Shown: piece by piece, positions 1 through 20,000 of the stretch
Layout: every line of letters starts with the position of its first letter
Numbering within the stretch: position 1 is the first letter of the stretch
Origin: Lophium mytilinum
Lineage: Eukaryota
Length of the DNA stretch: 20,000 nucleotides
Direction of reading: 5' to 3'
Assembly (NCBI GenBank): GCA_010093605.1
Contig: MU004181.1
Location: 3,828,846 to 3,848,845, forward strand
Notes under the pieces: model-generated
The model's input: the letters and a program-made list of their open reading frames with translations, nothing else
Told to the model about the DNA's origin: nothing
The model's database searches: none
Made by a program: the position numbers and the translations under genes

Positions 1-45
1 ATCTATCTATCTATTTATTCTTCTATTAACTCTATACCTTTAATA
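1..45 (+). repeat. 3' end of Copia 5' LTR (truncated by window start)
   Basis: Ends ...CCTTTAATA (RIP form of ...TAACA) immediately before the PBS. Confidence 0.65.
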
Positions 46-59
46 GGTTATAAGCCTAG
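46..59 (+). promoter_or_regulatory. Copia primer-binding site (GGTTATAAGCCTAG)
   Basis: Differs only by transitions from the GGTTATG(A/G)GCCCAG PBS of Drosophila copia-type elements, which prime from an internal initiator tRNA-Met fragment. Confidence 0.75.
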
Positions 60-597
60 ATTACACTACGCAATCTACAGCTATATAAAGCACTAACAGG
101 CAGGTTCCATCTTAAAATTAACTAGATATTAATTAAAATTATCTAAATTAAAAAAATATTAATAAGAATTATCTAAATTAACTAAATATTAGATAAAAAC
201 AACGCTATTTACTATCTTATTTACTATTACTAGTATATAAACCTACTATACTACTATATAAGTAGTTTTAAGCTTAAAATAAAGCTAAAATAGCTAAAAA
301 TAAAGCTAAAATTAAAGAAGAGGACAAAGTTATTAACTATAAACCCGCTATATAATAGCTAGAATGTAATCTAGAATTATAAATCTATTACAAATAAAAT
401 TAGACTAAAGAAATTTATATTTACTATTATAAAGCTTCTATAAGCTTATATTATATTATAAACTACGCAATTAACCTTCTAACCTCTATTATCTATTACA
501 TATTAAATCTAGATACTCTAGATTAAATTATAACCTTTTATCCTATTATCTTATCTAACATAAGATAAAGAAATTAATTAAAAATTAAAATATTTCT

Positions 598-786
598 CTT
601 TCTATCTATCTATCTATTTATTAAATACATAGATATATAGAATCCATCTATCTATCTATTCACTAAATACATAGATAGATAGAAATCTATCTATTTAAAT
701 AAAAATCTATAGATATATAGAAATCTATCTATTTATCTATTTATCTATCTATCTATTTGCCTAACAGGCTATCTATCTATCTATTT
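598..786. repeat. Degenerate (ATCT)n/(AGAT)n repeat units in Copia 5' leader
   Basis: Repeated units of about 40 bp like TCTATCTATCTATT..TAAATACATAGATA.ATAGAA, each with internal inverted ATCT/AGAT arms. Confidence 0.7.
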
Positions 787-794
787 AATCTAAA

Positions 795-3651
795 ATAGAT
801 AAAATTAGTATTACTAAGCTAGTTAGTTAATTTAACTATAAAGTTTAGGCTCTAAGAGTATAATCTCTCTTAGTAGAAAAAAGTTATAGTAATGCTATTA
901 GTAGTACTACTCCTATTCCTATTAATAAGGAAAACAATATAAAAGCATTAGCCACTATTAGGCTTACTATAGAGGACGGTCCTCTATTATAATTATAGTA
1001 TTCTACTACTATAATAGAAGCTTAGAAGCTACTAAAAAAGCTATATAGCTCTAAGGGCTTTAGTTCTAAATTTCTTATTTATAAGGAACTATTTAATACT
1101 ATTTTATCTAAGTTTTTAACTATAGAAGACTACTTAAATAAGATAAAATAGTTAATAGATTAATTAAAAGTAAAAAAGCTTAAATTACTAAATTAAGTTA
1201 TTATAGCTTAGGTTCTAAATAACCTAATAGACCCCTATAACGGCTTTATAACTATAGTTACGCAATCCTATAGGGAAAATTTATCTAATATTAAACTAGA
1301 TAATTTATTCTCTAATTTAATAGATAAAGTAAGACAACAGAAGTCTAAAGAGCACGAAACGGCTCTATTTAATAGAACTAAAAAGTTCTTACTAAAAAAG
1401 AATAGAGTAGAAAAAATAAGATATTATAAGAAGTATAAAGCAGCTATGCACTTTATAAAAGATTATTTCTATCTATTTCCTAAAAAAGCTCTAAAATAGT
1501 TTAGAATAAAGGAATACTTTAAACCACTAAAAGATAATAAGGAAGAATCCTTACTTATAGAAGAATCTAACCCTAATAATTAGGGAGATTTCGATATAGA
1601 TCTAGATGCAGCTAAAGTAAAGGTATTTCTAGCATTCTATTATACCCCTAATAATAAAGCTAATTATATATTAGACTCCGGGAGCATAAGCTATATAATA
1701 GTAGATAGAAATCTATTTACTAGTTATAAGGAGCAAGCTATTATATTAAATTAGGGAGAAAATAAAACTATAACTATAGAAGGTATAGGAAATGTATAAT
1801 TAAAACTAAATAGAAATATATTTATACTAGAAAAGTGCCTTTTTATACCTAACTTTAGATATAATCTAATATCTATAAGTAAACTAGATTCTATAGGAAT
1901 AAACATTACATTTAAGAATAAAATAGCTATTATATATAAAAAGAATAATATACTAGCAATAGCATCGCTTAAAAACTTGTTATACTATATAAATATAGAA
2001 AATACAACACTTTTTATAAACTAAATACATAAATAGATAGATAAAAGCAATTTAATAAATATATATATAGATAGAAATAATCTATCTATTTAGCACTAAA
2101 GAATGGGCTATATAAGCTCTAGAAAGCTTAGTATACTATTAGGTATAAATATAAAAGAACCTATATAATATAAAGCCTATATAAAAGCTAAAATAATAAA
2201 AAATAAAAGAAGTAAAGAAATAATACTAAAAACGGTAATTCCTTTATAAAAAGTCTCTTTAGATTTAGCAGGGCCTATAAATCTATCTAGTTTAAGGGGT
2301 AATAAATACATTATCTTCTTTATAGATACAGCTTTAAGATATATAGAATATAAACTATTAAAATCTAAAGATAAAGCTTATAACGCCTTTTTAGAATATA
2401 AAGCTAAGGCTAAAAATATAAATACAGGAGATAAAAGAAAAATATAAATTTTTAAAACTAATAATAGGGGAGAATATATAAATAAGAAGTTTAAAATAAC
2501 TCTTTTAAAAATAGGTATAACCTATTAATTCTTAAGCCCCTATACGCCGGAACAAAACGGTCTAGTAGAGCAAATTAACTTAACTATATTTAATATAGTA
2601 AGGGCTCTATTATATATAGCTAATTTACCTTTTAACCTATAGAAAGAAGCTGTAAATGCGGCCGTATATATATATAATAGAACGCCGCACTCTAGCTTAA
2701 AAGATAAAACGCTATTTAAGCTATATTATAAAAGAAAAGCTAAAATAGATAATATAAAAATCTTTAGCTCTACAGCTTATTATAAGGTTAAAACGCAAAT
2801 AACTAAATTAGAACTAAGAGCTAAAAAGGCTATAATATTAGGCTATAGTTTAAATGCGTATAGATTATTAGATCTAGAAACTAATAAGATCTTCTAGGCA
2901 AGAGATATAACTATAATAGAAAGCTTTCTAAATATAAAGAATAAAGTAAATAAAAAGGAAAGCTCTATAGAATATACTATAAAACCACTAAAAGAACGTA
3001 GAAATATAGATAATACTATAATAAGTAGTAATAATACTATTAGAGATAAAAGTAGTACTATTATAGATAAAAGCTTATCTAAAGATAAATTAGCTATAAA
3101 ACTATCTAAAAATCTATCTATTTAAAGATATATATAAAATCTAAATTTAATAAATAGATATATAGATAAAAATTAATTATTAAATATATTTATAGATAGA
3201 AACTAAACTTAATTATCTATAAATATATATATAGATAATCTATCTAAAGATAAATTAGCCTTTATTATTAATAATAATAATAAGCTAAATATATATAAAT
3301 AAGCTATAGAATCTCTATATAATAATAAATAGAAAGAAGCTATATAAATAGAAATAGACTAGCTTAATAAGTAAAATACCTAGAAGTTAGTAGACTTACT
3401 AGTAAATAGAAATGCGTTAAAAGAATACTAGGTTTATAAAATTAAAACTAATATAGATAATAATATATCTAAATATAAGGTAAGATAGATAGTAAAAGGT
3501 TTTAGCTAAATCTATAGCGTAGATTATAAAGAAACCTTTACTAATATCTGCTATCTAGAAGTATATAGGCTATTACTTATATTAGCTACTTATTATAACT
3601 AGGAAATAATATAATAGGACTTTAAAAATGCATTTACGTATATAGACTTAG
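795..3651 (+). pseudogene. Copia gag-pol polyprotein relic (gag, zinc knuckle, aspartic protease, integrase, N-terminal RT)
   Basis: One frame throughout. Putative start ATA(ATG) at 795; NYKV*ALRV*SLL at 834 (NYEVWALRVQSLL); de-RIP CX2CX4HX4C at about 1425-1466; ILDSGS at 1668-1685; PYTPEQNGLVE at 2538; EAVNAAVYIYNRTPHSSL at about 2646; *KEAI*IEI at 3330; KYKVR*IVKGFS*IYSVDYKETF at about 3471; DFKNAF at about 3618. Confidence 0.92.
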
Positions 3652-3837
3652 TATAAGAAACGCGAGCGTATAGTATAGATATAGAGTATAGGCGTATTAA
3701 GTTATTAAAGATAAGTTTATATTATAAAGTATATTAAGTATAAGGCTCTATATAATAAAACTATATAGGGTGTATATATACTAGCTAGTATATATATACT
3801 AGAAATATATATATACTTAATAGCTATATTTCTTATA
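3652..3837 (-). repeat. 3' LTR of element A (186 bp)
   Basis: Perfect 9-bp terminal inverted repeat TATAAGAAA...TTTCTTATA (RIP form of TGTAAGAAA...TTTCTTACA). It begins exactly where Copia RT stops. Adjacent 3838-3849 reads ..AGGGGCTTC on - (short PPT-like). Left flank CTTAG is the predicted TSD. Confidence 0.8.
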
Positions 3838-4006
3838 GAAGCCCCTATAAAGAAAGTTACTATTTTAGTAACTATGCTACCCGCCCCTAGAGAAAGAAAA
3901 AGAGAGACTAAAGTAAGTATATATATAGAATATATATATTAAGAATATATATATTAAAGAGTAATTAAGCCTTAGTAACTAGCTCTAGGTAGTTAAGCTA
4001 GAGTAA

Positions 4007-5310
4007 TTAGCTTAGCTTTAGCTTCTTAAGAATATTACTAGTAATATCTATAGCTCTATACTTCTTATTTATAGCTTTAAGGGCCTACTAGTATTTAATA
4101 TTAACTAGTAAAGGTATAGATATATTTTACTTTAGTTATAGTATTACTATACCTTTTATACTTATAGCTGGTAGTATTATCTTTAGTAGTATTACTATAG
4201 TAGCTTTAGTAGGCTTTAATAGTATTAGCGTGCTAGCTTATAGTATAGAGGGCGTTAGCGCTATAGTAGCTTTAGCAGGCTTTAATAGTATTAGCGTGCT
4301 AGCTAATAGTATAGAGGGTGTTAGCGCTAAGAATACTATAGGTATCTTAGTAGTTACTAATATAGATATAGGTACTACCTTTATAGTATATATACTTACT
4401 TACTAGGTACTATTATTTATTAGTAAGAGATAAATCTATCTATCTAGCGCTATAAGAATTACTAGTAGAGGCTCTCTTTTCTTTTTTAGCGGCGTCTATA
4501 GTATAGTATTAGTATTTATAAGCTTTATATCTTATATAAAAGTAGTAGTATATTAGTCTTTAATAAAGTAAAAGAAGTCTAGTAGTAGATATAGGTATAC
4601 CTTAGTAATTAATTTAACTATAGTATCTACTATAGTATTCTTAATAGTAATAATATTAAGTCTACTAGCGCCTATAGCTATATTACTACTAGCGCGCCTA
4701 TAGCTATAGAGGTTATTTACTCTTATCTATACTATCTAACTTATCTTAAAATATACTATATTATAGTAGCCTATATATATATCTATAGTATCTTATAGAA
4801 GCTATATCTACTTATTATAGATTTATAGCTTATATTAGAGCTTTAAATCTACTATTACTACTAGGTTTACTACTATCTATAGTATTTATAATAATTACTT
4901 CTAGATAGAGCTTATATATATCTTTATTAACTACTATATAGCTTTCTTATAGTTAGATTAAATATAGATAGTATACGCTACTATTTCTACTAGTATTACT
5001 ATAGCTTACTTTAATAATAGTATTACTAGGGTTAGCTATATTACTATAGGCTAGGCTTTAGCGGGGGTTATCTTTACTAGAGCTATAATAGATAAAAATA
5101 TCTTTCTTACTACTTATTTTATTATTACTAGCTCTATACGTATTTTATATAATTCTATATAAAAAGATTTAATAGTATTCTTATAGCTTTCTATTTAGGC
5201 CTTATATTTCTAGTAGCTATATTTAAGGCCCTAGATAGAATAGTAAGATAGAATATATTATTTAGCTAGTAGACGCGCCTATTTACTATTAAAGGTATTA
5301 ATAATAGTCT
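4007..5310 (-). pseudogene. C-terminal half of extra ORF of element A (unknown product)
   Basis: Single minus frame with sparse TAA/TAG stops. Contains TPLKKKREP and an in-frame 66-bp duplication. In frame with 13204-15019 after element B is removed. Confidence 0.7.
4195..4329. repeat. 66-bp tandem duplication (2 copies; 22 codons)
   Basis: CTATAGTAGCTTTAG(T/C)AGGCTTTAATAGTATTAGCGTGCTAGCT... at 4195 and 4261. Confidence 0.9.
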
Positions 5311-5315
5311 TATAC

Positions 5316-5482
5316 TATTATAAGAAGTAAGAAGTAGAGGTAAAAGATATTCTATTAAGCTAGCTAGCAGGCGTTACCTTAAGGGGACGCCGGCGTATAG
5401 AATACTAATATCTAGCTAGGCGTATATATAAACGTCCGTTATATACTATATACTATAGCCTACTATCTATAAAACTATAATA
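5316..5482 (-). repeat. 3' LTR of element B
   Basis: Direct repeat of 13037-13203 with 13 mismatches by manual alignment, all transitions. Termini TATTATA...TATAATA (RIP of TG...CA). Confidence 0.95.
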
Positions 5483-5782
5483 ACTACCCTAAATAGAAAA
5501 AATATTATTATTCTTAATAACTATATATCTAAGCTATTCTTTCTAGATAATAGCGTTCTAAGAATAAGATAGTAAGTAATAATTAGTAGCGTAGAAGATA
5601 AATATAATAGAAAGATAGTTCTTATAGATTATAAAAGATAGTAAGCTATAAAAGGAGATAGAGTTATAGAAGTTATAGAAAATAATAGATTTATATAAGT
5701 TATAAAAGAGAATAGCTTCTTAAGCTAGTATACTATTAGCGGGTAGTAGAGTATAGATAGCTATAAAACTTTATAGGCGGCT

Positions 5783-5962
5783 GTAATTAGGCTATAGTAA
5801 TTAGCTTATAGATAAGTAATTAAGCTATAATAGATTTCTAGAAGCTAGCTAAGATAACTAGTTCTAATAGACGGGGGCGTATAGATAGGCGGAGGCATTA
5901 TAGTTCTAGGTAATTAAGCTTATAGTAATTAAGCTATAGTAATTAATCTATAGTAATTAAGC
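5783..5962. repeat. GTAATTA(A/G)GC-type short repeats in 3' UTR of element B
   Basis: About 14-bp units (TATAGTAATTAAGC) at 5910-5962 (4 copies) and related copies at 5783-5830. Confidence 0.75.
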
Positions 5963-5989
5963 CCTTTAAAAAGTCTATAAGGCTTATTT

Positions 5990-8900
5990 TTAAGAGGGGT
6001 GCGCCTTATTATAGGTGTCTACTAAGTTAATATTAATATCTCTATAGTATATCTATTAGTTTTTCTTAGTACTATAGCCGCGCCACTTAATAAAGTACTT
6101 AATAAACTTTTTTTTAGCTTACTCTATATAATAAACTTAGCGGCCGAGTAGCTTCTTAATATAATAGAAGGCGCTATTATTATTATTATATTTATTATTA
6201 ATGGCAGGCAGCTAAGAGAGTTAACTAGCCTTATTATACTTATATAGGTCCGTCTCTAGTACTATAGTAGGCTCTAATTACTTAATAGAAATTACTAGAT
6301 AGATCTTCTAGGTATCTAGAAGGTCTATTTTATACGTGTTATACTCTATAGTATATTTAATAACTCTAGAATCTATATATTACTAGCTAAACTTCTATAT
6401 TAGGCTAGAAATCTTAAAGCCCTTATTTAGATAGATATATACTAGATCTCCTAGCTATAGTATAAGCGGCTAGCGTTTAGTATTAAAGTAGATCTTTATA
6501 CGCGCTATAGTAAAGGTAATAGTATTAGTAGTATTCTAGTAGAGTATATTATAGGCTTACTAAAAGCTCTAGATACCTACTTTAGAAGTTAAGAGCTATA
6601 TATCTAGTAAGAATATAAATATTAGTAAAGGGCCTACTATAGATATCTAGAGTCTTAATATAGATATCTAGAGTCTTAATATAGATATCTAGAGGCTTAA
6701 TATAGATATCTAGGGGGCTTATATACCTATAACTATACTAATAGCTAGTTTAGTAAGGTTATCTATAGTAATTAAGAATAGAAGGCCTTTATTAATATAG
6801 AAGCTATAGATTACCTTATTTAGAGAGATATTTATAGACTTATTCTTTATATTATTTATAGAGTAATAAAGCGTAATAAGAAAAGCTAGCTAATTAAAAC
6901 CTTCTTATAAGATATAGTAATAAATAGTAATTTCTATTATCTAATTTATATATTTAGACTAGCTATCTATTCTAGAGTAGTACGCCGTTAATATTAAAAG
7001 CCGGGTTTCTAATTATTTAAAGAGGGACTTCTAGAAGGCGCTAGTAAACTTATAGTTCTAGTCTATAATTATAGCGGCGGGTATACTCTAATTAGCTAAA
7101 AGATCTAGTATAATATCTATCTAGTTTTTAGTATTATAGATATCTTTACTAGGGCTAGCTATAGCGCGCTTACTAAACTTATATATAATAGTAACTATAG
7201 TATTAAAGCTATTATAGTTAGATAACCCTACTATAAAATTAATAGATACTATATAAAAGAGTATTAGAGGAGTCTATATAAATATAAGTAAGCTATAGAG
7301 CCTATAATAGTAGGTAGTATTAATATAATAAATAGAGTAGTAAAGAAGATAGGCTTTAAAATATCTAGAAAGCTTTCTTATATAGTATATAGCTTATATA
7401 TACTTATAAGAGTATTAAAAGCCTATATATAAGTAAGTATTATAATACTTATAGAAAATATCCCCTTTTAAGGCTTTAAAAATATATAGCTATAGCCGGC
7501 CGTCTATAGTATCTCTATAATAGATAAGGTTATTATATAGAAAAAAAAAGAGTTCTAGAGTATCTATATTAGAGAGATACTATTTACTAGCTTCTAAGAT
7601 AGTCTCTATAAGTAGAGTAAGTATATCCGCCTACTACTTATTAGTTATATACGCCTAGATAAATATATTATAGAAGTCTATTACTAGCTCTATAATTATT
7701 ATATTAAAGGTAAATAGCTTCTCTAAGGTATCTAATATAGCTTATTCTAGATCTCTTATTATAAGACGTAATAGGGCGTTAGGTATAATATATTATTTTC
7801 TAGAATAGTAGTATATATTAAGGTAAAATTATAATAGATACTATAAGGCCTATATAAGCCTTATATTAAGCTTATTAATAGCTAATAAAATTAATAAGGA
7901 GGCCTTTATAATACTAAGGGTGGCGGCGTAGTTAGTAATAATAATAACGGGAGCCTCTAATACCTTAATAAGATAATAGATATAATAAATAGTCTATACT
8001 ATATAGGCGACTTCTAGCTTAGTTAACTAGTAATTATGCTTAGTAGCTAAGAGTAGTTTACTAAGAAATAGAATAGATTTAATCTTATTACGCTTAATAT
8101 TCTTAATTAATAGTAGGTTTTCTTAAATATAATAAACTATAATACTAAAGCTATATTTTAAGGCGTTAATATCTATATATAGCTATCTAGCTAGTTAATA
8201 GTATACTAGAAATAAAGAGTTACTAAAGGCTTATTAAATAGCCTTATATAAGTTATAGAGCTCTATATAATTATTAACCTAGGCCTTATATATATAATTT
8301 AGGTAAGCGTATTCTATAATAGGGGCATTTATAAGAAGATAGGTTTTCTTCTTTTATAAAAGCTTTAATAGCTAGGCGTAGTAGCCTATATACTATTATA
8401 GCTATCTAGTAAGCTTTAAATAGTACTCTAGCTTCTTTAAGAAGGTTAGAAAAGCTAGATTCTAGATAGTAGTAATCTTTTTAGCTACTATTATAAGGCC
8501 TAGGGCGTCTATATACTACCTTAAAAGTATTAAAAATAGATAGCCTAGATATAACTTCTCTACCTTAAGTATAATATTTAATTCTATTAAGGTATTAAAT
8601 AGCTACTATAGATAGTATAGATATTCTAGTAGTATCTTACTATAGATAACTATATTATCTATATAGGCCTTATAAAAGGCCTATAGTTTATAATATCTAA
8701 TAATCTTATTAATCTACCTTTAGATATAGATAATAGAGCTATAGAAGCCTATAATAGCTATATTAAAATATTTTTATCTATAGTATAAAATAATAGTAAA
8801 CTTCTTATAGTTATTATAACTAATAGGCTATTAATAAAAGAAGAAGGCGGCGTTTATAGTAGATATTTAAGGGTAGCCCGCTACTAAGCTTATAAGCTTC

Positions 8901-11900
8901 TTCTATTTTAGTAGTAGGTAGAAGTTCTTAATAGTAACTCTATTTAGGCCGCGGATATTAATAATAATATAGCCTTTTCTTATTAAAACTCTATTAATAG
9001 TAATAGTCCTCTATATAATAAATATAGAAAAGCTAAAATATATTAGAGCTATAGACTACTCTATACGCCCTTATTAGTAGAGCTTATTAAACTTAGTATC
9101 TATAAGCGCCTGTTCTTACTATTTAAGAGAATAGACTTAGTAGGCTAGCTTAGTATTATAGCTATTTACTTTATTAGTAAGTAGAATCTATAGCTACTAG
9201 TTCTTAGAAACGCTAGTAAGCTTACTATTATTAGTAAAGAGGGGTTTAAACTTATTAATAATATTATAGATTTATATTACTATATTCTATATACTATAAA
9301 TAGTAATACTAAAGGGGCTAATAGTCTTAATACCTTCTTTAAGTATTCTAGTAAGTATTAGCTACTTATTCTATATAGGGTATAAAGTTTTAACTTAACT
9401 AGTTTAGGTATTATAGCTACTAGGTAGTAGAAATGCCGGGTTTTAGCTAGTTTAGGGTTACTAAAGCGGCGCTTATTACGCGGTAAGGGCGTATTTACCG
9501 GCATTAATAGTATAGGCAGCTTTCTTAAAATAGTCTATAAGCGTGCTAAGCTTTCTATACTAGGTAACTATAAAGAGTTTCTTAATTATATTATATACTA
9601 GAATATATAATATACCGGCGTCTAGAATATAGATATATACGCCGCCTTTATTACTAAGCTTTAAAGGTAAATAAAGCTCTAGTATAAATATATAGTCTCT
9701 ATCTAGAAGCTTATTATACTTATAGACCTTAAATAGAATAGGGGAGATAGAGTATATAGAAATAATTATTATAGCTATAGCCTATATAAAATACTAAATC
9801 TTAGTAGGTAAAGACTTACTATTTCTTATCTATACTATTATTAGAGCTTTTATATTCTAATAGCTTACTATATATAGGCACTTATTCTTAAAGTTAATAA
9901 TTACACCTTCTAGATCTAGAATATCTATACTAAGAAGTAGATTTATATATAGCTATTTAATAATATAAGCCTTAAATATTATAATAGCTATAATAGGCTT
10001 TCTATTAAGTAGCCTAGATATATATAGGTTAATAATATAGTACTTAGTTAATAAAACTAGGTAATTTTCAACACCTTATACTATTATTAGCTTAATTATT
10101 TTAAGCTTTATAGAGTTTCTATACTTTTTAAGAAAGTCTCTACTAATTAGGGTTATTATATTACCTAAGTTAGGCGTAATATTATTTAAGGGGCCGTTCT
10201 TTATTAAGAATACCCTTATAATTATATAGTAATAGCCTCTAAATATAATACTAGAGCTAATCTTTAGGTTTATTACTAAGAAAAACACGTAGATAGGCTT
10301 TATAGTTAGAGGCTTATCTTCTATAGCTATTACTAGAAGGCTATAATAAGCGCTTTTAATCTCTATATAGAGTATAGTAATATATTAATAGATAGTTTCT
10401 AGTATAGGCTTTATAGCTAGCCTTCTATAAAAGGCTATAGAGGGCTTATAGTCTTTATAGAGATATTAAAATAAAGTATTATTTAATAGAAAGCTTACTA
10501 TATAGGTATAATAAGTATATACTAATATAAGGCTTACTAGAGAGGTTAAGGCATTAAAGATATCTATAAATCCGGCGTTAATAAGATTAAAAGGCTTATT
10601 CTTAATATAAGGCTTCTAATAGGCGTTATTAATATATTATTTCTAGTGCTTATTATCTATATAGCCTATTTAGGCTATAGTCTTCTTAACGCCGGCTTAT
10701 ATATCTACCTAATATTATTTATTCTAGGCGTTAATATTAGTATTAGCATTAATATTAGCGTTATTTATAGCTATCTTAAATAGCTATTTACTAAAGTAGT
10801 TAGCTCTAGTAGACCTATAGCTTCTAAAGCTACTAATATTTTAAAAGAAAGGCTAAAAGGGTTATATATTACTATTTATAAGTATAAAAGGCTATTAAAA
10901 GGCTAGTAGCGCTAGTTTTAATATTACTATAGAAGCACTTTATTAATACTATAGGGTATAAGTATTATAGTTAGTATACCCGCTAAACTAATTAAAAGAT
11001 AGCTATCTATAGTATTTACGGTACGGCTAGTTACTAATAGGTTAGTAGAATTATAATAGCTAGAAAGTCTATTAAGAAGCGTAGAAGTTATACTAATCTT
11101 AAAGGGCTAATTACTAGCTATTAAAGCCTATCTAGATATAGACGCTAGCTAGGTTATACTAGTTATTATATCTAGACTCTAATAGCTATATAAACTTATA
11201 AACCGCTATAGCTACTATAGATAGTAATATACTATTTCTAAATAAGGGGTTAATACTATTCTAGATAAATATAAGCCTATTACTACTACCTTTAGTATTA
11301 ATACTTAACGCCTTTATATTATATATTATATTATATATATATATTAATATACTATAATAGAAGTAAGTATCTTAGAGTATATAGAAGGCTATTATTAGCT
11401 TTATAAGTAACTTAGTAAGTAGCTTCTTAAACTAGTAAATAAGGGATTTATACTAGCTATTAGTAAGAGCTATATATTAGAGGCCCGCCTTCTCTATATT
11501 AGTAAGAGTAGAGGTATACTAAGTAAAAGTACTTTCCCTTAAATACTAAGGTAGCTTATTTCTTATAATATCTTTAAAATAGAGCCTAGTAATATTTCTT
11601 ACGCGCTTAATAAAGATATAGATATTCTTAATATATATATTATTTCTACTATAGAAGATACTATTAATAAAGTTAGCTAGAAGCTTTAACTTAAAGTAGA
11701 AAAAGCTAACTTCTTATAGTTAGAAGCCTTCTATACTACTATCTCTAGCACTAGCACTAGTACTAGGTATACTAGAAAAACTAGGGGGGCCTAGTAGTCT
11801 AGAGGCTCTAGAGGCTATCTATACGCGTATAATAGCCGCATTAATAAGATTCTAGAGCTACTATAGCTAGGTAGTATTAAATACTATATTAGGTAATAGG

Positions 11901-12298
11901 TTCTAATTCTTATTATAGGTAACTTACTCTATTTAGTTTATATAGCTAGAGTTAGCTAAATATAGAGAGTTTATAATAGTAAGCTAGTATTATTTAAGCT
12001 ATTATATAAAGTTTCTAATATTAGCCTATAGTATCTAGAATAAGGTTAGCTACTTTAAAAGGTATATCTAGCTCTAGTAAGAGCTAAGGGGCTACTTAGT
12101 AACTAGAAATTAAGTAAGAAAACCGCTTCTAAAGGCTATATTAAGTAACTAGCTCTAGAGTTAGCTAGAGTTAGTATACTTAAAGGTATAGAGCTAGTAC
12201 CTAAGATAGATAATATTCTAAGGTAGCTCTAGGTAGATATACTATAGTAAGAAAGTATTAAAGCTACTTATACTAGATATAGAGTTTTAAAAAGCTAT
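5990..12298 (-). pseudogene. Element B gag-pol polyprotein relic (gag, C2H2-like finger, protease, RT, RNase H, integrase, chromodomain)
   Basis: Putative start, finger, protease, RT and terminal stop are in the same minus frame. ATA(ATG) at 12298; protease ITPNLG (=DSG) at about 10170 and LLLSIDIL (=LLLGMDIL) at about 9930; RT INIRGLNRVT at about 8950 and AYIDNIVIYS (=YIDD) at about 8660; RNase H NY*LTKLEVA at about 8020; integrase IITD..KFTSAF*KSL-like at about 7050 and LTAYYSRIDS*S (=STAYHP.TDGQS) at about 6975; chromodomain YFIKWRGYS at about 6085; stop at 5990-5992. Confidence 0.92.
6640..6714. repeat. 21-bp in-frame tandem repeat (about 3.5 copies) in integrase C-terminal region of B
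   Basis: Unit TAGATATCTAGAGTCTTAATA; reads (P/T)LDIYIK on - in the pol frame. Confidence 0.9.
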
Positions 12299-12310
12299 AG
12301 ACGGGGGCGT

Positions 12311-12459
12311 ATAGCTAAATATAGGCGTTAATAGCTAAATATAGATATTAATAGCTAAACGCGGGCGTTAATAGCTAAACGCGGGCGTTAATAGCTAAAC
12401 GCGGGCGTTAATAGCTAAATGCAGGCATTAATAGCTAAACGCGGGCGTTAATAGCTAAA
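12311..12459. repeat. 20-bp tandem array (7 copies plus a partial) in 5' leader of element B
   Basis: Unit ATAGCTAAACGCGGGCGTTA, head-to-tail with no spacers. Variants differ by transitions only. Confidence 0.95.
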
Positions 12460-13019
12460 GAAGATAAGAATAAAAAAGAGATTAATAAGAGTAGAGAGAA
12501 TAAAAAAGAGAAAAAGTTAATAAAAGAAAGTAGATAAAGCTTTATTAATAATATAGTTTTCTTCTAGACTATAGAACTACTTTCTTAGGGCCCTATAAGC
12601 TATATAATAGTAACTTCTAAAAGCTACTATAGACTATAGTCTAGAAGTTATTAAAAATAGTAGTTTTCTAAGAGTTATCTAAGATAGTAACTTTCTAGAA
12701 CCTATTATAGACAGCAGTTTCCTAGAGGTTATTATTATTAATAGCTAAGTAGGTATTTAGAGACGCTAATACTAGTAAGTAGACTTCTATAATATAAATA
12801 TATATAACGCGGATAATAGAGAACTAGAAGATAGTTATATCTAGCCTATTAAAGCTATAGTAGATATAGACTAGTATAGAGTTATAGAGTTATAAAGCTA
12901 ATACTAGTAATACTATTAACTATAGTTTCTTAAGTTCTAGTAGTACTCTAAAGGTTATAAAGAGCTATAGATCTAGTACTTATAATATATAAAGCTAGTA
13001 AGTAAGCTCTAGTAATAGT

Positions 13020-13036
13020 AGTACTAAGCTACTATT
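13020..13036 (-). promoter_or_regulatory. Putative primer-binding site of element B
   Basis: The minus strand after the 5' LTR reads AA-TAGTAGCTTAG, compatible with RIP of TGGTAGC.. (complement of a tRNA 3' CCA end). Confidence 0.5.
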
Positions 13037-13203
13037 TATTATAAGAAGTAAGAAGTAGAGGTAAAAGGTATTTTATTAAGCTAGCTAGTAGGCGTTACCT
13101 TAAGGGGACGCCGGTATATAAAATACTAATATCTAGCTAGGTATATATATAAATATTTATTATATACTATATACTATAGCCTACTATCTATAAAACTATA
13201 ATA
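13037..13203 (-). repeat. 5' LTR of element B
   Basis: Direct repeat of 5316-5482, followed by TSD TATAC. Confidence 0.95.
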
Positions 13204-15019
13204 TATACTTAATAATTCTATTAATTACTACGCTAAGTTTAATATTATTTTCTTTCTTCTTTTTAGTCTTCTAGTTCTACTTAAAGTAGAATTACTACTT
13301 TAATATTTCTAGAAAAGTATTATAGTCTAGGGTATTTAGGTACTTTTTATTTCTTATTTTTATCTCTTCTCTAAGTACTATATATATAAATATAGCGTAC
13401 TTACCTATAGCTACTATAGCTTACTAGTTATTATAAACTATATTCTACTATTATTTATTATATTTATAGATATATAAGATATTACTAGCGCTATATACTA
13501 TTTTACTAATTAGAGTAGGTGTATTTTTATATATATACTACTAGCTTTCTTACTCTAGAATAATATTATTAGGTAAGTTAATTAAGTTAGTAATATTTAC
13601 TATACCGGCGCTATTATTACTATTAACTCCTTTCTAGCCTTTAAGTACTATAATAGTAGTATTTATCTTTCTATTAAGCTTCTATACTTCTATATAATCC
13701 CCTATTACATCTATTATATTTAATAATTCTAGCGGCGGCCTAGGCGCAGAAGTATAGGGGATAATTCTAGTCTTAAGTAATACTATTATTAAGGGTGCAA
13801 GTAATACTATTATTAAGAGTATAAGTAGTATATTAACTACTACCTAAAGCTTTATCTACTAGGCGTTTATTCTATATTAGAGCTGCCTAGATAGAGTTAG
13901 TAATAGTTATACTTCTAGCTCTATCTCTTTTACCCTTCTCTCTACTATTTTTATAGTAAATATATCTAGGTTACCTAAATTATTTAGAACTTAGCCTATC
14001 TCTTTAAATTATTTATTATAGCAGCGTTTCTCTACTTTAGCTAGAGCTACTTTATCTAATAGAAAAGGCAGCTTCTCTTTAGCGCTTCTATTAGCGGCTA
14101 GATTAACTTTATTAAAGAGGTTATAGCTTTTAATACCTTTAGCTTTAGTATTTACTTCTTTAGGGCCCTTATCTCTATTATATAGCTAGCTAATATTATT
14201 ACTACTAATATTAATGCTAGCTACTATATATAGGTTATAATTCTATACACCGCCCGCTAGATATACCTTATACTCTAGCTAGATATTATCTAGTAGAGGC
14301 GCTATAATAGTAATATTTTTAGTATAATTTAGATTTAAGTATATAACTAATTCTAGCTCTAGAAGATAGTCTATAACTATCTTAAAGGGTCTAATAATAA
14401 CCTTTATTTACGCTAGTATTAGCTTAAGTATTTTATAGGTAAGGCCCCTCTATATACTATAGGCGCTAAAAAGAATAACTTTACTATAGATAATATAAAC
14501 TCTACTATTAGCTTCTACGCTAGATAGGCCTATTAGCTCTCTTATAAGTAATACCTTATCTTTCTTAGTAAAAGTAGCTAGCTAGTTAATATAAAGCTTA
14601 TAGAGGGAAATATTACTAGTAGTAAGTAAGGCTAGAAGTTTCCTAATATACTAGTCTATAAGTAGTACTTATAATAGAGGTAAATATATTTAGTTAATTA
14701 GATAGTAGAATAGATATAGTATAAAGTTATATTTAGCTAGTAGAATAGATTTACTAGAGTAGCTTTACTAGTATTCTATAATATTATCTAAAATAGTACT
14801 ATTTCTATTACCCGGGCGCTAGAATTTTAGCTCTATAATAGTAGCGCTATAGTAGATATTATTAGAGAGTTATATTATAGAGAAAGAGTTTATTATAGTA
14901 AAGTTATAGATAGTAGGTTTAATATCTATAGTTTTAGTAATTTACTATCTTTTTAGCTTAGTAATGCTAGAACTATATTTTACTATAAATACTAAAAACA
15001 CTAAAAATACTATAATTAT
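13204..15019 (-). pseudogene. N-terminal half of extra ORF of element A (unknown product)
   Basis: One minus frame with roughly one RIP-type stop per 20 codons over 1.8 kb (e.g. KGPKEVNTKAKGIKSYNLFNKVNLAANRSAKEKLPFLLDKVALAKVEKRCY). In-frame 24-bp duplication at about 13775-13827. Start position is uncertain. Confidence 0.7.
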
Positions 15020-15020
15020 A

Positions 15021-17268
15021 TTACTAATAAGAGCGCCTACGGGCCTTAAACTTCTCTACTATTTATAGAATATTCTTCTATAGTTATTTAACTAGCTCTA
15101 CTATAATATTCTTCTTATTATTATACCCTTTCTATTTAATATTATAGATATTCTCTTTCTCTATAGTTCTACGCCTAATAATCTTCTCTATAATATATTT
15201 ATTATAGCTATCTATAATAATTAGTTATAGAGATAGAAGCTTTCTATAGAAAGAATCTAGGGTTACCTATTCTAAATAGGTAATACTAATAACCGGGTAG
15301 ATTTATCTATATTTTTTAGAAAGTTTAAGCTTATAGGCTAAGTAGCTAATATACTTTATAATCTTAAATAGGCCTACTTAAATTAGTAATAGTAAGCTAC
15401 TATCTAGAAGCCTATAGCTATAATAGACGCCTCTAATAACCTTAAAATAAATAGAATCTTTTAAGTCTAGGGGTATATAGTTCTTATTATAGTATACTAC
15501 TATTTTAGCTTAGGCTAGTTTAAAAGTATTAACTATATTAAAGTATAGTACCTTTCTATCCCTTAAAATAGAAATATTATCTATATTAGTACTATAGAAT
15601 ATTTTTAGTATAAGACTATATATAATCTTATATAGTATATATCTACTAGAGGCGTTAACTACTATATTAAGAGTATATTCTACCTATAGTAGAAGCTTCT
15701 ACTACTATATCTTATACTATTCTATAAGTAGATAGTATAAGGTTATTTCTACTATTTAGTTAGTTCTCTCTACTTATCTATCCGCGGATAGATAGTATAA
15801 TATTATTATTTAAAGGTCTATCTTATATTATCTAAATAGCTCTATCTAAAAGGCGCTTATAAATTTTAGGTTTCTATTACTAATAATTACTTCTAGTAGG
15901 CCCTAATTATAGTAGATCTAATTAAAGAAGTAATGCATCTATATCTTAGCTATATCTATCTTCTTTTCTAGTAGTAGGCGTATAGCCTTAGAGAACTTAT
16001 TAGTAGTTATTATAATTATATTATTACTATTAGTAGATAAGGGTAGTACTACTATAAAGTTAATTATAAAAGTTATAAAAGGCCTATCTAGCATCTATAC
16101 TAGCTAGAGCTATCTATAGAGCTTTTAATTTCTTAGTTTTAAAGTCTTATATACTAGGCATGCTAGTATCTATTTATTAATCTTCTAATATAGTTTAGGT
16201 ATATAAATCTTATACCTAAGATAATAGTAGGCTTAGTTAGCGCTATTATAGCCGCTTTTATTATGCGCCTTTTTAATAGCGTTATCTACTATACTACTTA
16301 GTAAGTATAAATATTACTTATTACTACTACCTTTTAGATATAAAAGGCTATTATTTAAGAAAAACCTATAATAGTAGATTTTATTACCTTATTTTACATT
16401 TATTCTAAGGTATTCTAGAATAACTTTAAAGATTTTATTCTTCTTTAGCTTTAAGTAGATTTATTTCTTATAAGCGTTCTTAATATATATAACTATAGTA
16501 GTAAGGCTAGTAGTAGTAGTATCTACTACGCCCTTAGCTATAATATTATTATAGATAGTAGGTATTTATAAAAGCCTATCTATATTTTTATAGTATTTCT
16601 CTAGCTTATAAATAATTATTATCTATAGTAGAAATATAGATAGATATAGCTTCTATTTTCTTAGGCGTACTAACTATCTATTTTTACTACCTATTTATAA
16701 GGCTAACTTTAAGGCTTTATAGTCTATATATATAGTAAAGTTATTACTATCTAGATAGTATTAGAGTTTCTATAACGCCTAGACTAGGGCGCCTACTTCT
16801 AACTCTATAGCCTAGTAATTTTACTTATACTTTTTTAGTAATTAGCTAATAAAAAGAACTAGCTATTTAATTCTATTAAATCTAATTTAATATATAGCGC
16901 ATCTATAGCTATACTCTTTAGAGCTATTAATATAGATAATAAATAGTTTAAGATAGTCTAGTAGAGCTAGTACTAGCTTACTATAAAGTATTACTTTTAC
17001 TACTTTCTAGGCGTCTAGGCACTTCTTTAAAGAATTAGTAATCTTCTATATAGTTATATAGTTCTTTTATATATAGCCTTTTTAAGAACTATTCTTAAGG
17101 CTATTTAGTTTTAGCTTTTATAAGAGTATAATAATATAGCTATATTTTTTAATATATTAGTAGTACTATCTAAAGAAGGCTAGCCTAGATTTAAGCTTAT
17201 AGAGCGTCTTTAGAAACCTTATATTCTTAATTACCTCTATCTTTTTATTTAATATACTAAGGCCTTAT
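15021..17268 (-). pseudogene. Element A pol relic: RT C-terminus, RNase H, integrase, chromodomain
   Basis: GLSILNKKIEVIKN and FLKTLYKLKSRLAFF at about 17170-17265; IIYINSSKEY (=YVDGSK) at about 16925; NY*AIELEVGALV*AL at about 16800; HHCC AHNKSGY...ACLVY at about 16150-16270; GLLEVIISNRNLKFISAF at about 15880; YYLSADR*VERTN at about 15780; chromodomain IIEKIIRRR...IK*KGYNN at about 15110-15200. Confidence 0.92.
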
Positions 17269-17535
17269 TATAGTATAAACCTAGAATTATAATAATTATA
17301 TACTAAGGTTATATATAGCCCCTTATATAACCTAAGTAAGGCGCTAGGCTATAGCCCGTGCGCTAGCCTTAAACTATAACCTCTTAAGAGCTTCTAGCTC
17401 TCTCTCTTCTTCTTAGCTTAGATTTTTATAATAGTTAATATACCTTATTACTTATATTATATTAGCCCCCTATATAATCTAAGCTTACTCTTCTATACTT
17501 AAAATCTTATTAATTTTTTCTAGAACTCTATTATA
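17269..17535 (+). repeat. Putative 5' LTR of element C
   Basis: Non-coding segment bounded by TATAGTA...TATTATA (imperfect inverted termini, RIP of TG...CA), with a CT-rich tract. The second copy is not in the window, so boundaries are approximate. Confidence 0.5.
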
Positions 17536-17570
17536 AAATCTAGGCGTTTTTACTAAAATTAATTAAATAC

Positions 17571-19909
17571 CCTTCTACCGGCCTAGCTATATAGCTACGC
17601 GCGGCACCTAAATCTAACCTAGTAGACTATAACCTAGTACTACCTCCTTTAAATAAGCTAATTAATCTAATAGCTAAACTTTAAGGTAATTTAAAGACTC
17701 TAGGCGCTATAAGTAGCGCTAATCTAAATACTTTAGAACGTACTTCTATAACTCTACTAACCGCTAGTAATAAAGAAGCCCGCTACGCTACGCGCCTTAT
17801 ACGCTTTTAAGGTGCAGCTAAAAGCTCTTCTACTCTAGCTATTATTTCTAGCTTCTACTATAGAACTAGAGGACTAATTCTAAATATCTAAAAATAGATC
17901 TAGAACTCTATAACTCTACTAGCCACCTTATAGATAATAGATAATACCTAGCGCGCTAATATATAGCGCCCTAAACGCCTAGTAAATAAGTAAGTTAATA
18001 CTACTAGACTCTCTAGCTAGAACTAGACTATTACTAATAAACTTAATCTAGACTACAACTCTAATAATAAAGGTAGCTTTATTACGCCTAGTATAAATAT
18101 TCTAGATAAGCGCGCTATATAGTTTATTACTAAGAATAATATAAATAAGATATAAGCTAGAGGTAGTAAGCTATACTCTACTTATTACCGCGTCTCTATA
18201 GTAGATTAATAAGCATCTATTCTAGTTATATACTATAAAACTAAATAGGCTATAGATACTAAATCTAAGTATATAGATATTCTAGAGAATCTATAAGAAA
18301 GTAACTTCTAGAGCTATATTTAGCTACTAATTTAGCTTTTTAACTATTATACTAATAGCTCTATAACTATTATACTAATAGCTCTATAACTATTAACCTT
18401 ATAGTTACTAATAAGACTAAGTTTACTACTATAGTAAATAAGAATAAGCTTATATAGTAGAAGTCCTTTTAAAAGCTCTATATAGAATATAAAGTTAGCT
18501 TTAAAAAAGCTAATAATAAAGATAAGTACTATAATAACCTCTAGAATAAGTACTAGAAATATAAATAGAATATAGCTAATAATACTACTATAATAGAATA
18601 AGAGTTAGAGGCCTATTATACTAAATAGCTATAGCACGCTATAAGTAGTTACTAGGTTAACCTTAAACTTAACTAAATACACCTATACTATAATTACTAG
18701 TATAGTAAGTACTAGAACCTTAAGAAGATATATAAGAAGCTTACTACTTATATTAAAAAGCTTAACTAATAGCTTTATTAATAGACTTGCCTATAGCCCT
18801 TAGACCTAGACTATAATTTAGATAATAATAATAGTACTTATTTTTCTATACCTATAGTACTACTTTACTATTATTCTATTAGCTAGCCTCTATAGTTTAA
18901 ACCTATTAAGAGTAAGTCCGCTACTCTATTTACGCCTATTTAGGACCCCGGCGCGTACGCGGTAATATATTACTACCCTAATCTAGATAAATTTAGTAGT
19001 AGTAATAAAAATAAGCTATTCTACTAATAGTAGTATATATAGGTTCTTAGTAAGCTTAATATCTATATACTATTATATACTACTATATATTATTATATAG
19101 TATATATTTATAACTAGCTTAAGAGTAAAGCGTTTAATATAATCTTCTACCGCGCTAAATCTAATAGTAATAAGCTATACCTCTCTATAGAGAAATTAAT
19201 TAATAACCTAAATAAGGTCTATAGACTCTTTAATAAAGTAGCTAATATATATACTAACCTATATAATAGTAAATTTATATAGAAGAAGAATAAGTATATT
19301 ATAACTTAGGTAGGCTACTTTAATACTAGCGTAGCCTTCCTCTATCTTAAGAACCCTAAAAAGATCTACTATATATAGTATAACCTTACTAATAGCCTTA
19401 AGTATAAGGCTACTAATAGATAGAATAGTAATATTATAACTTTTATTATATTTCTCTAGACTTTAGAATTCTAGCTTAATATTATTAAACTAAATAAGAA
19501 TATCTATAAGAATAAAAACGCCTTTAAGTTTATATATAATACCTATAAAGCTACTAGTACTAGATTAGCCTCTAATACGCCTTACTATCTACTACTTACT
19601 AACGCTAAGTATATATTTAAGAATAATACTAGTAATACTACTCTAACTACTACTACTATAAATAATTCTCTAGGCCTCTTTAGCTATAATTACTATACTA
19701 TTACTTACTTTAAGTAGCTAGGTTACTACTAGAACTATCTTAAGCGTAGATATATAGCTAATAGTAACGCCCTATATATTAGCTAATAGCTAGTTCTAAT
19801 CTATAAGATTAGTAGTCTTACTAATAAAATTAACCTTACCGGTATTAATATTAATATTAGCGCTATAAACACTAGCTCTACCTATAATAAAATAATAGAA
19901 AATACCTAG
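17571..19909 (+). pseudogene. gag relic of element C (with internal frameshifts)
   Basis: Long low-complexity N-terminus; YPNLDKFSSS at about 18975 (=HPDPDKFSG, typical of fungal Gypsy gag); LNKVYRLFN at about 19210; de-RIP C-W-N-C-x4-H-x7-C knuckle at 19727-19777; ends GAA AAT ACC TAG. Confidence 0.65.
18341..18395. repeat. 23-bp tandem duplication (about 2.4 copies)
   Basis: TAACTATTATACTAATAGCTCTA at 18341 and 18364, partial copy at 18387. Confidence 0.85.
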
Positions 19910-20000
19910 TTTTTAGTAATAGTTACTACTAAGAACCTCTAACGGCCTTTAATAATAGAAAATTAAGAGTAGTTATAGATAGAATTACTATTTTAGAATA

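Follow-up and report, generated by a model that had tools for sequence, protein, structure and literature searches.

A stretch of 20,000 nucleotides (nt) from the fungus Lophium mytilinum (contig MU004181.1), called the window throughout, contains the remains of a Gypsy/chromovirus retrotransposon, element A, whose pol gene is followed by an extra region. The extra region is a coding relic of approximately 1000 codons that lies on the strand of A, in the env position, and begins at the pol stop in a shifted frame. We assign a probability of roughly 0.55 to the reading in which these 3.1 kb are a third sense-strand coding region internal to A, placed between pol and a 3' long terminal repeat (LTR) of about 355 nt and killed by repeat-induced point mutation (RIP). 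The gene is dead in this copy, with 71 stop codons, one or more local frame breaks, and a second retroelement, B, inserted into it. The window itself is a fungal AT-rich block under extreme RIP, a diagnosis based on a TpA/ApT ratio of 1.73 and a (CpA+TpG)/(ApC+GpT) ratio of 0.09 over its whole length; its GC content lies between 0.21 and 0.31 in every 1-kb interval. The features that bear directly on the extra region are as follows, in window coordinates.

15021 to 17336, minus strand: pol remnant of element A, comprising only the reverse transcriptase (RT) thumb, RNase H, integrase and a chromodomain-like end (Pfam and RIP-tolerant alignment).
15026 to 15021, minus strand: TAG TAA closing the A pol frame, directly past the chromodomain-like stretch.
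13204 to 15058, minus strand: proximal part of the extra relic, with 9-bp and 24-bp tandem repeats; frame open from 15058.
13204 to 13208: TATAC target-site duplication, right copy.
5316 to 13203, minus strand: element B, a nested Gypsy LTR element (LTRs, with TATAC on both sides).
5311 to 5315: TATAC target-site duplication, left copy, the one removed for the join.
4007 to 5310, minus strand: distal part of the extra relic, with a 66-bp tandem duplication, PLKKKRE and a low-complexity tail (frame and codon model).
3652 to 4006, minus strand: putative 3' LTR of A, an LTR-sized non-coding segment (called on size and position only).

A first-pass annotation of this DNA had proposed that excision of B with one TATAC copy joins 15019-13204 to 5310-4007 in a single minus-strand frame, and the join exists exactly as claimed: 1816 + 1304 = 3120 nt, or 1040 codons, reading ...INRIIKY up to the junction and KTIINTF... 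beyond it. The frame runs through the excision only when one copy of TATAC is removed, and since it is kept across the excision the relic must be older than the insertion of B. There are 71 stops among the 1040 codons of the joined frame, against 185 and 160 in the other two minus frames. Under a first-order Markov null, 131.8 +/- 14.7 stops are expected per frame, and the lowest six-frame minimum in 500 simulations was 89, so the frame periodicity is real. The stops are therefore sparse, as had been stated; that all of them are TAA or TAG, which had been taken as a sign of RIP, carries no weight, because TpG has been wiped out and TGA is absent from all six frames (count 0). What had been described as a hidden open reading frame (ORF) of about 1040 codons is a relic instead, the longest stop-free run of the joined frame being 58 residues. 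The internal duplications are real (66 bp in 2.0 copies at 4195-4329; 24 bp in 2.6 copies at 13775-13835), and the motif PLKKKRE is found in the joined frame. At its upstream end the extra frame is open for 13 codons back into pol (from 15058), one base out of the pol register, and the frame of pol itself fills with stops directly past 15021. RIP produces transitions only and no indels, so the one-base offset at the pol stop is more likely to be original.

The strand and the limits of the coding signal were examined with a codon model of six classes, one for each sense and each antisense frame, trained only on A pol and on a Copia-type relic at the left of the window; for each block of 420 nt we asked whether every frame mapped to its own class. 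All six frames were placed correctly in 6 of the 7 blocks of the extra region, including the very first (15019-14600) and excepting 5026-4607. The same was true of 2 of 5 blocks of the held-out B pol and of 0 of 5 blocks of the non-coding controls, which comprised the LTR and untranslated region (UTR) of B and 3652-4006 among them. Over the first 420 nt past the pol stop the joined frame contains 9 stops, and the two remaining minus frames contain 19 and 21. With coding signal present from these first 420 nt onward, an LTR cannot lie immediately downstream of pol. At the other end the signal stops at about 4007; the next 355 nt look non-coding and reach to the break of the Copia relic at 3652; in this segment none of the six frames was assigned to its own class, as in the B LTR and UTR controls. 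The extra region and A pol are alike in composition (GC 0.261, 0.261 and 0.248; AT skew -0.110, -0.096 and -0.091).

Element A was characterized with Pfam and with a RIP-tolerant aligner, in which a codon is scored by the best amino acid available if T was C or A was G, with a penalty for each reversal, in Smith-Waterman alignment to fetched proteins; reversed targets provide the null. Low-complexity targets rich in Ala, Gly and Pro raise this null to 189, and only large margins count. A Gypsy-type RNase H is found at 16653-17024 (RT_RNaseH, E 2.7e-11; RT_RNaseH_2, E 1.4e-8), and downstream of it an integrase is indicated by Integrase_H2C2 (E 0.007) and SH3_Tf2-1 (E 0.002), both under the Pfam cut-offs. 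A pol is colinear with residues 335-1087 of a fetched polyprotein, P0001, with a score of 495 versus 44-69 for reversed targets. The alignment starts at nt 17318 on P0001, where residue 335 lies just past the RT catalytic region, and at 17336 on a second polyprotein, P0157 (residues 1149-1900). No Pfam Chromo match was obtained for the chromodomain; the alignment does extend through the C-terminal part of P0001, which is a PF00385-bearing protein, and places ...IK(stop)KGY... opposite ...IKWKHF.... In a phmmer search A pol matched one protein, at 57 bits. The pol frame ends in TAG TAA past the chromodomain-like stretch, as the first-pass annotation had it. Upstream of 17337 neither the RT core nor protease nor gag of A was found in the window by Pfam or by the RIP-tolerant aligner, the minus frames of 18500-17300 scoring no higher than the null; 45-codon windows over 18700-17250 reached at best 43 versus a null maximum of 41.2, and control windows in the RNase H and integrase of A reached 70.

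Two further elements flank A and its extra region.

801 to 3651, plus strand: Copia-type relic with gag, protease barrel, integrase and the start of RT (Pfam and RIP-tolerant alignment).
17337 to 20000, plus strand: element D, a repeat that breaks into A, or cuts it short, within RT (weak coding character by the codon model).

The Copia relic carries the Pfam domains Retrotran_gag_2, Pol_BBD, rve_3, SH3_retrovirus and RVT_2, the last over profile positions 2-94 of 244. Its positions 801-3644 align to residues 5-968 of the 1363 residues of P0002, an intact Copia polyprotein, with a RIP-tolerant score of 1412 (reversed targets 51-66), and the match between the two has an E value of 1.7e-150. After 3651, four contigs of other Copia copies continue with sequence unlike that of the window, and the Copia relic is therefore broken off there, inside RT. 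The remainder (P0002 residues 969-1363) is not in the window, being absent from D and from the extra region by RIP-tolerant alignment, and a degenerate search of the window for the continuation of the contigs past 3651 gave no match. For element D the codon model points to the plus strand, and the RIP-tolerant aligner found no match above low-complexity noise among 179 Gypsy and Copia polyproteins. Its identification as the RT of A, as the Copia remainder or as a plus-strand Gypsy element was rejected in each case, the alignments being of low complexity only.

Copies were compared by means of public contigs from two runs of one sample, which contain 58-65% of the sampled words and amount to about 45 million letters; no RNA run appeared among the listed ones. 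Same-sample contigs cover 4886-5222 at approximately 84% likeness and 13660-14099 at approximately 81%, and this coverage, together with the full RIP load, indicates that the extra region is repeated in the genome. Contig depth cannot rank the parts of the window and serves only as a hint; in that sense the summed depth of the extra region is close to that of the integrase part of A, the Copia relic and D are several times higher, and D is the highest of the window. A joint from 45 to 3789 seen in the contigs was judged unreliable, one side of it being 24 nt in TA-rich sequence.

Membership of the extra region in A is favored because an LTR would find no space between pol and the coding signal, because strand, GC content and AT skew are the same, and because the region ends in an LTR-sized segment abutting the broken Copia relic. 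That the 355 nt end exactly at the Copia break fits a nesting order in which A entered Copia and was itself entered by B and D. The extra region would then have been copied and spread with A as a third ORF (ORF3), and it could have been expressed from the A transcript by way of a spliced or re-initiated message or by frameshifting at the overlap. The first-pass annotation had described a sense-oriented gene in the env position; a sense coding relic directly behind pol is indeed present, which may have belonged to A and may once have been one continuous ORF, and the accessory, anti-silencing or captured host functions suggested for it are speculative.

A number of observations weigh against this reading. 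Blocks of this AT-rich, RIP-affected kind are built up as mosaics from elements nested in one another. A had been presented as a complete chromovirus, and in the window it is a 3' piece only, cut at about 17337 inside RT, with the RT thumb to the chromodomain-like end preserved and no RT core, protease, gag or LTR pair; its 5' end is outside the window, and any remainder of A would be situated on the far side of D, past 20000. No partner for 3652-4006, or for 3652-4071, was found in 19300-20000, 17337-18200 or 1-800, and the segment is unlike the B LTR. In AT skew (+0.135) it departs from both the extra region and A pol, and no clean polypurine tract was found upstream of 4006. Among the contig pieces listed, none provides a second copy in which pol and the extra region are joined. 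B, which is a Gypsy element of the same window and related to A (it aligns to A pol with an E value of 4e-28), has the canonical layout and no such region. When the region is divided into 50-codon blocks, the joined frame has the lowest or tied lowest stop count in 15 of 20; over about 300 nt at 5026-4727 another minus frame is clearly better (2 and 5 stops vs 8 and 7), so indels have occurred in the region. The complementary plus frame has fewer stops, 64, and the longest open run of the region, 104 residues at 4092-4406, so that the strand call depends on the codon model and the skew. HMMER with 13204-15019 against 1.84 billion representative proteins gave 0 matches at E <= 0.001, a null result that is weak evidence, as the equally mutated A pol matched just 1 protein in a word-indexed search. 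Finally, Muszewska et al. 2011 explain the extra domains of fungal LTR elements by multiple insertions (PMC3248453).

The alternative that best survives is that the extra region descends from some other mobile element, unrelated to A and lacking recognizable termini, which nesting or truncation brought beside the pol end of A. Candidates would be a 5'-truncated non-LTR element (Tad/LINE-like), a DNA transposon whose inverted repeats have been erased by RIP, or an older element hit by A. We regard this as possible and somewhat doubtful. Nested mosaics are the rule in such blocks, and here B and D interrupt the region of A and A interrupts Copia; no LTR pair ties the extra region to A, and "complex transposons" formed by multiple insertions are described in fungi (PMC3248453). 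The complex transposons resemble the present case in having extra coding material within a fungal LTR element amid nested, degenerate sequence; they differ from it in that the extra region of A starts at the pol stop, shares the strand and composition of A and has no termini of its own. No RT/endonuclease or transposase domain was matched by Pfam in the extra region, at a sensitivity that is low after RIP; the erased signal could hide a LINE or transposase domain from Pfam and HMMER alike, and the targets of the RIP-tolerant aligner were Gypsy and Copia polyproteins only. Against an unrelated element stand the coding signal within the first 420 nt and the 13 codons by which the open frame reaches back into pol: the event that brought such an element there, be it an insertion or a truncation, would need to have hit within some tens of bases of the end of pol and to have left both elements on one strand. 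The ends of the extra region show no terminal inverted repeats, its 3' end has no A-rich tail, and its composition is that of A pol.

A second alternative, which we consider improbable, is that the extra region is a long C-terminal extension of pol, with TAG TAA produced by RIP from Gln or Trp codons and the frame shifted by a one-base indel. RIP does turn CAA, CAG and TGG into TAA or TAG, indels do occur in the region, as the frame break shows, and two Gypsy polyproteins of Bipolaris maydis, P0157 and P0160, have approximately 290 residues past the chromodomain. A tail of 1000 residues far exceeds 290, however, and the tail of P0157 does not align (score 62 in the joined frame). Moreover, the pol frame is filled with stops past 15021, and an offset frame open 13 codons upstream is the usual look of overlapping ORFs.

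It is very unlikely that the coding strand is the plus strand, with the gene or element relic in the frame of the 104-residue run and the minus frame as its mirror. Besides its lower stop total (64 vs 71) and its long open run, this plus frame has 3-6 stops per 150 codons in 3901-4650 versus 7-9 in the minus frame. Two independently trained codon models nevertheless place the plus frames in antisense classes, adenine is in excess on the minus strand, the situation of A pol and the reverse of that in the plus-strand Copia relic, and no plus frame matches the missing part of Copia. That the region is non-coding, its frame bias arising from multiple-of-three repeats and RIP composition, is hardly tenable in spite of the 71 stops and the tandem repeats of 9, 24 and 66 bp, since the repeats make up less than 10% of the region, the bias extends over 15 of 20 blocks, and non-coding controls of the same composition gave 0 of 5.

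We return to the extra region as a gene of A and to what it may have encoded. No domain or homologue was recognized in it by Pfam, by HMMER or by the RIP-tolerant aligner, which recovers A pol (495) and Copia (1412). Pfam searches of both parts, of the plus shadow frame and of the alternative frame gave nothing apart from one noise match (GGDEF_GdpP, E 0.21). RIP has erased most domain signal in this DNA, to the point that the integrase and chromodomain of A itself miss the Pfam thresholds. With the RIP-tolerant aligner, the six frames of the extra region reached at most 195 against the 179 Gypsy and Copia polyproteins, which include gag-bearing proteins and long forms of 2000-4400 residues, versus a reversed maximum of 189; the joined frame scored no higher than 127. 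The six frames gave no match at E < 0.05 to the rest of the window, and an exact 39-mer of the region had no match in JGI metagenome contigs. From these comparisons the extra region is not a second gag-pol and is unrelated to gag, pol and Copia proteins. An uncorrected run had paired the extra region with B pol at E 0.015 and given antisense matches near 1e-3, all of which were judged compositional.

The extra translation has five hydrophobic loci (19-residue windows, Kyte-Doolittle >= 2.2), one of them at its very start; in the equally mutated translations of A pol, B pol and Copia the same scan finds 0, 1 and 0. NTA codons account for 64 of the 76 Ile, Leu, Val and Phe codons in these loci, and ATA for 26 of 111 codons. 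Because NTA arises by RIP from ACA, CCA, TCA and GCA, the loci may have been made by RIP, and they are read more simply as low-complexity repeats rich in Thr, Ser, Pro and Ala than as membrane helices, a reading in line with the in-frame 24-bp and 66-bp duplications. The hydrophobic start, which coincides with the 9-bp tandem repeat, is coded by TTT, ATT and GTG and may be genuine. An env-like secreted or membrane protein, with this hydrophobic start at the pol overlap, stalk-like repeats rich in Thr, Ser and Pro, and more hydrophobic segments, strikes us as a long shot; if it were true, the lineage would be a fungal counterpart of the insect errantiviruses and the plant Athila elements. Our guess is that the product was an accessory protein and not an enzyme, disordered for the most part and bearing a basic KKKR patch. 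An ORF3 protein of this kind, of low complexity, rich in Thr, Ser, Pro and Ala and without enzymatic function, might have aided the cycle of A itself, for example in particle trafficking or nuclear entry. The encoded product cannot be recovered from this copy.

In the canonical fungal chromoviruses MAGGY, Skippy and CfT-1, pol is followed shortly by the 3' LTR. These elements and B share with A the order RNase H, integrase and chromodomain, the last of these being putative in A, and they differ from it in having a short 3' region where A has a coding relic of about 3.1 kb. In B the 3' region is short because its pol, a single minus-strand frame, runs from 9364 to approximately 5531 and the LTR edge is at 5482. 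The first-pass annotation set the extra gene against canonical fungal chromoviruses with gag and pol only; to regard such a gene as unheard of in these elements is too strong, as fungal Gypsy elements with an extra ORF are already in print: Novikova, Smyshlyaev and Blinov 2010 describe fungal Gypsy elements of 4.4 to more than 13 kb, some with an "additional ORF of unknown function" (PMC2864245). Like A with its extra region, those elements are fungal, of Gypsy/chromovirus type, longer than canonical ones and equipped with an extra ORF without a recognized domain. A differs in being a RIP-dead fragment without a verified LTR pair. Full-text searches for extra ORFs in RIP-affected or fungal Gypsy elements yielded nothing closer than PMC2864245. 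The extra region is thus another, larger, dead case of a kind of extra-ORF fungal Gypsy element that has already been noted, and it forms no new category.

Comparable layouts are found further afield, as described in the sources cited. The plant Athila/Tat Gypsy elements also have an extra or env-like ORF of unclear origin between pol and the 3' LTR (PMC2864245, PMC4408406); they belong to other Gypsy clades and are likened to A by layout, and Tat ORFs carry a plant mobile domain, whereas none is found in A (PMC4408406). Bdelloid rotifer LTR elements with captured ORFs likewise add a third ORF to gag and pol; their host is an animal and their ORFs belong to recognizable families, in contrast to that of A, which is assigned to none (PMC5408684). 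Among the fetched sequences, three long Gypsy polyproteins of 2548-2944 residues from environmental and JGI data (P0153, P0161 and P0168) combine a SET methyltransferase domain (PF00856) with a chromodomain, and on their domain content appear to be retroelements with an added chromatin-modifying domain.

Several features of the neighboring elements deserve mention in their own right. The two LTRs of B (5316-5482 and 13037-13203) share 92% identity across 167 nt. About 3.7 kb (9364-13036) separate its 5' LTR from its alignable pol, approximately 1 kb beyond what gag and protease need in P0157. Nowhere in the window is a relic frame cleaner than at 9501-10650 in this interval, where 383 codons contain 12 stops and no match was obtained. 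The same long 5' region contains a 20-bp tandem array at 12290-12469, with about six copies of the unit TTAATAGCTAAACGCGGGCG, several of which retain CpG-rich cores spared by RIP. A 21-bp tandem array of 4.5 copies with 90-98% matches lies in the C-terminal region of B pol (6631-6725). At the left edge of the window, positions 1-800 are much less RIP-mutated than the rest (index 0.455 vs 0.04-0.08). Many contigs match as far as 43-45 and then differ from one another, which places the end of a repeat at 43-45, and positions 1-45 and 64-159 are matched by a contig of a run that is labelled as a different organism (X3).

RIP-reversible codon scoring raised A pol from 57 bits in phmmer to 495 against a null of about 50, approximately ten-fold, and offers a cheap means of annotating RIP-ruined repeats. 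Since the gene is destroyed here, the value of this copy lies in pointing to a family and not in its sequence. If the extra region travels with A, a large third gene without recognized domains would join the short list of extra ORFs in fungal Gypsy elements, and it would provide a concrete family in which to ask how such genes serve a retroelement under RIP.

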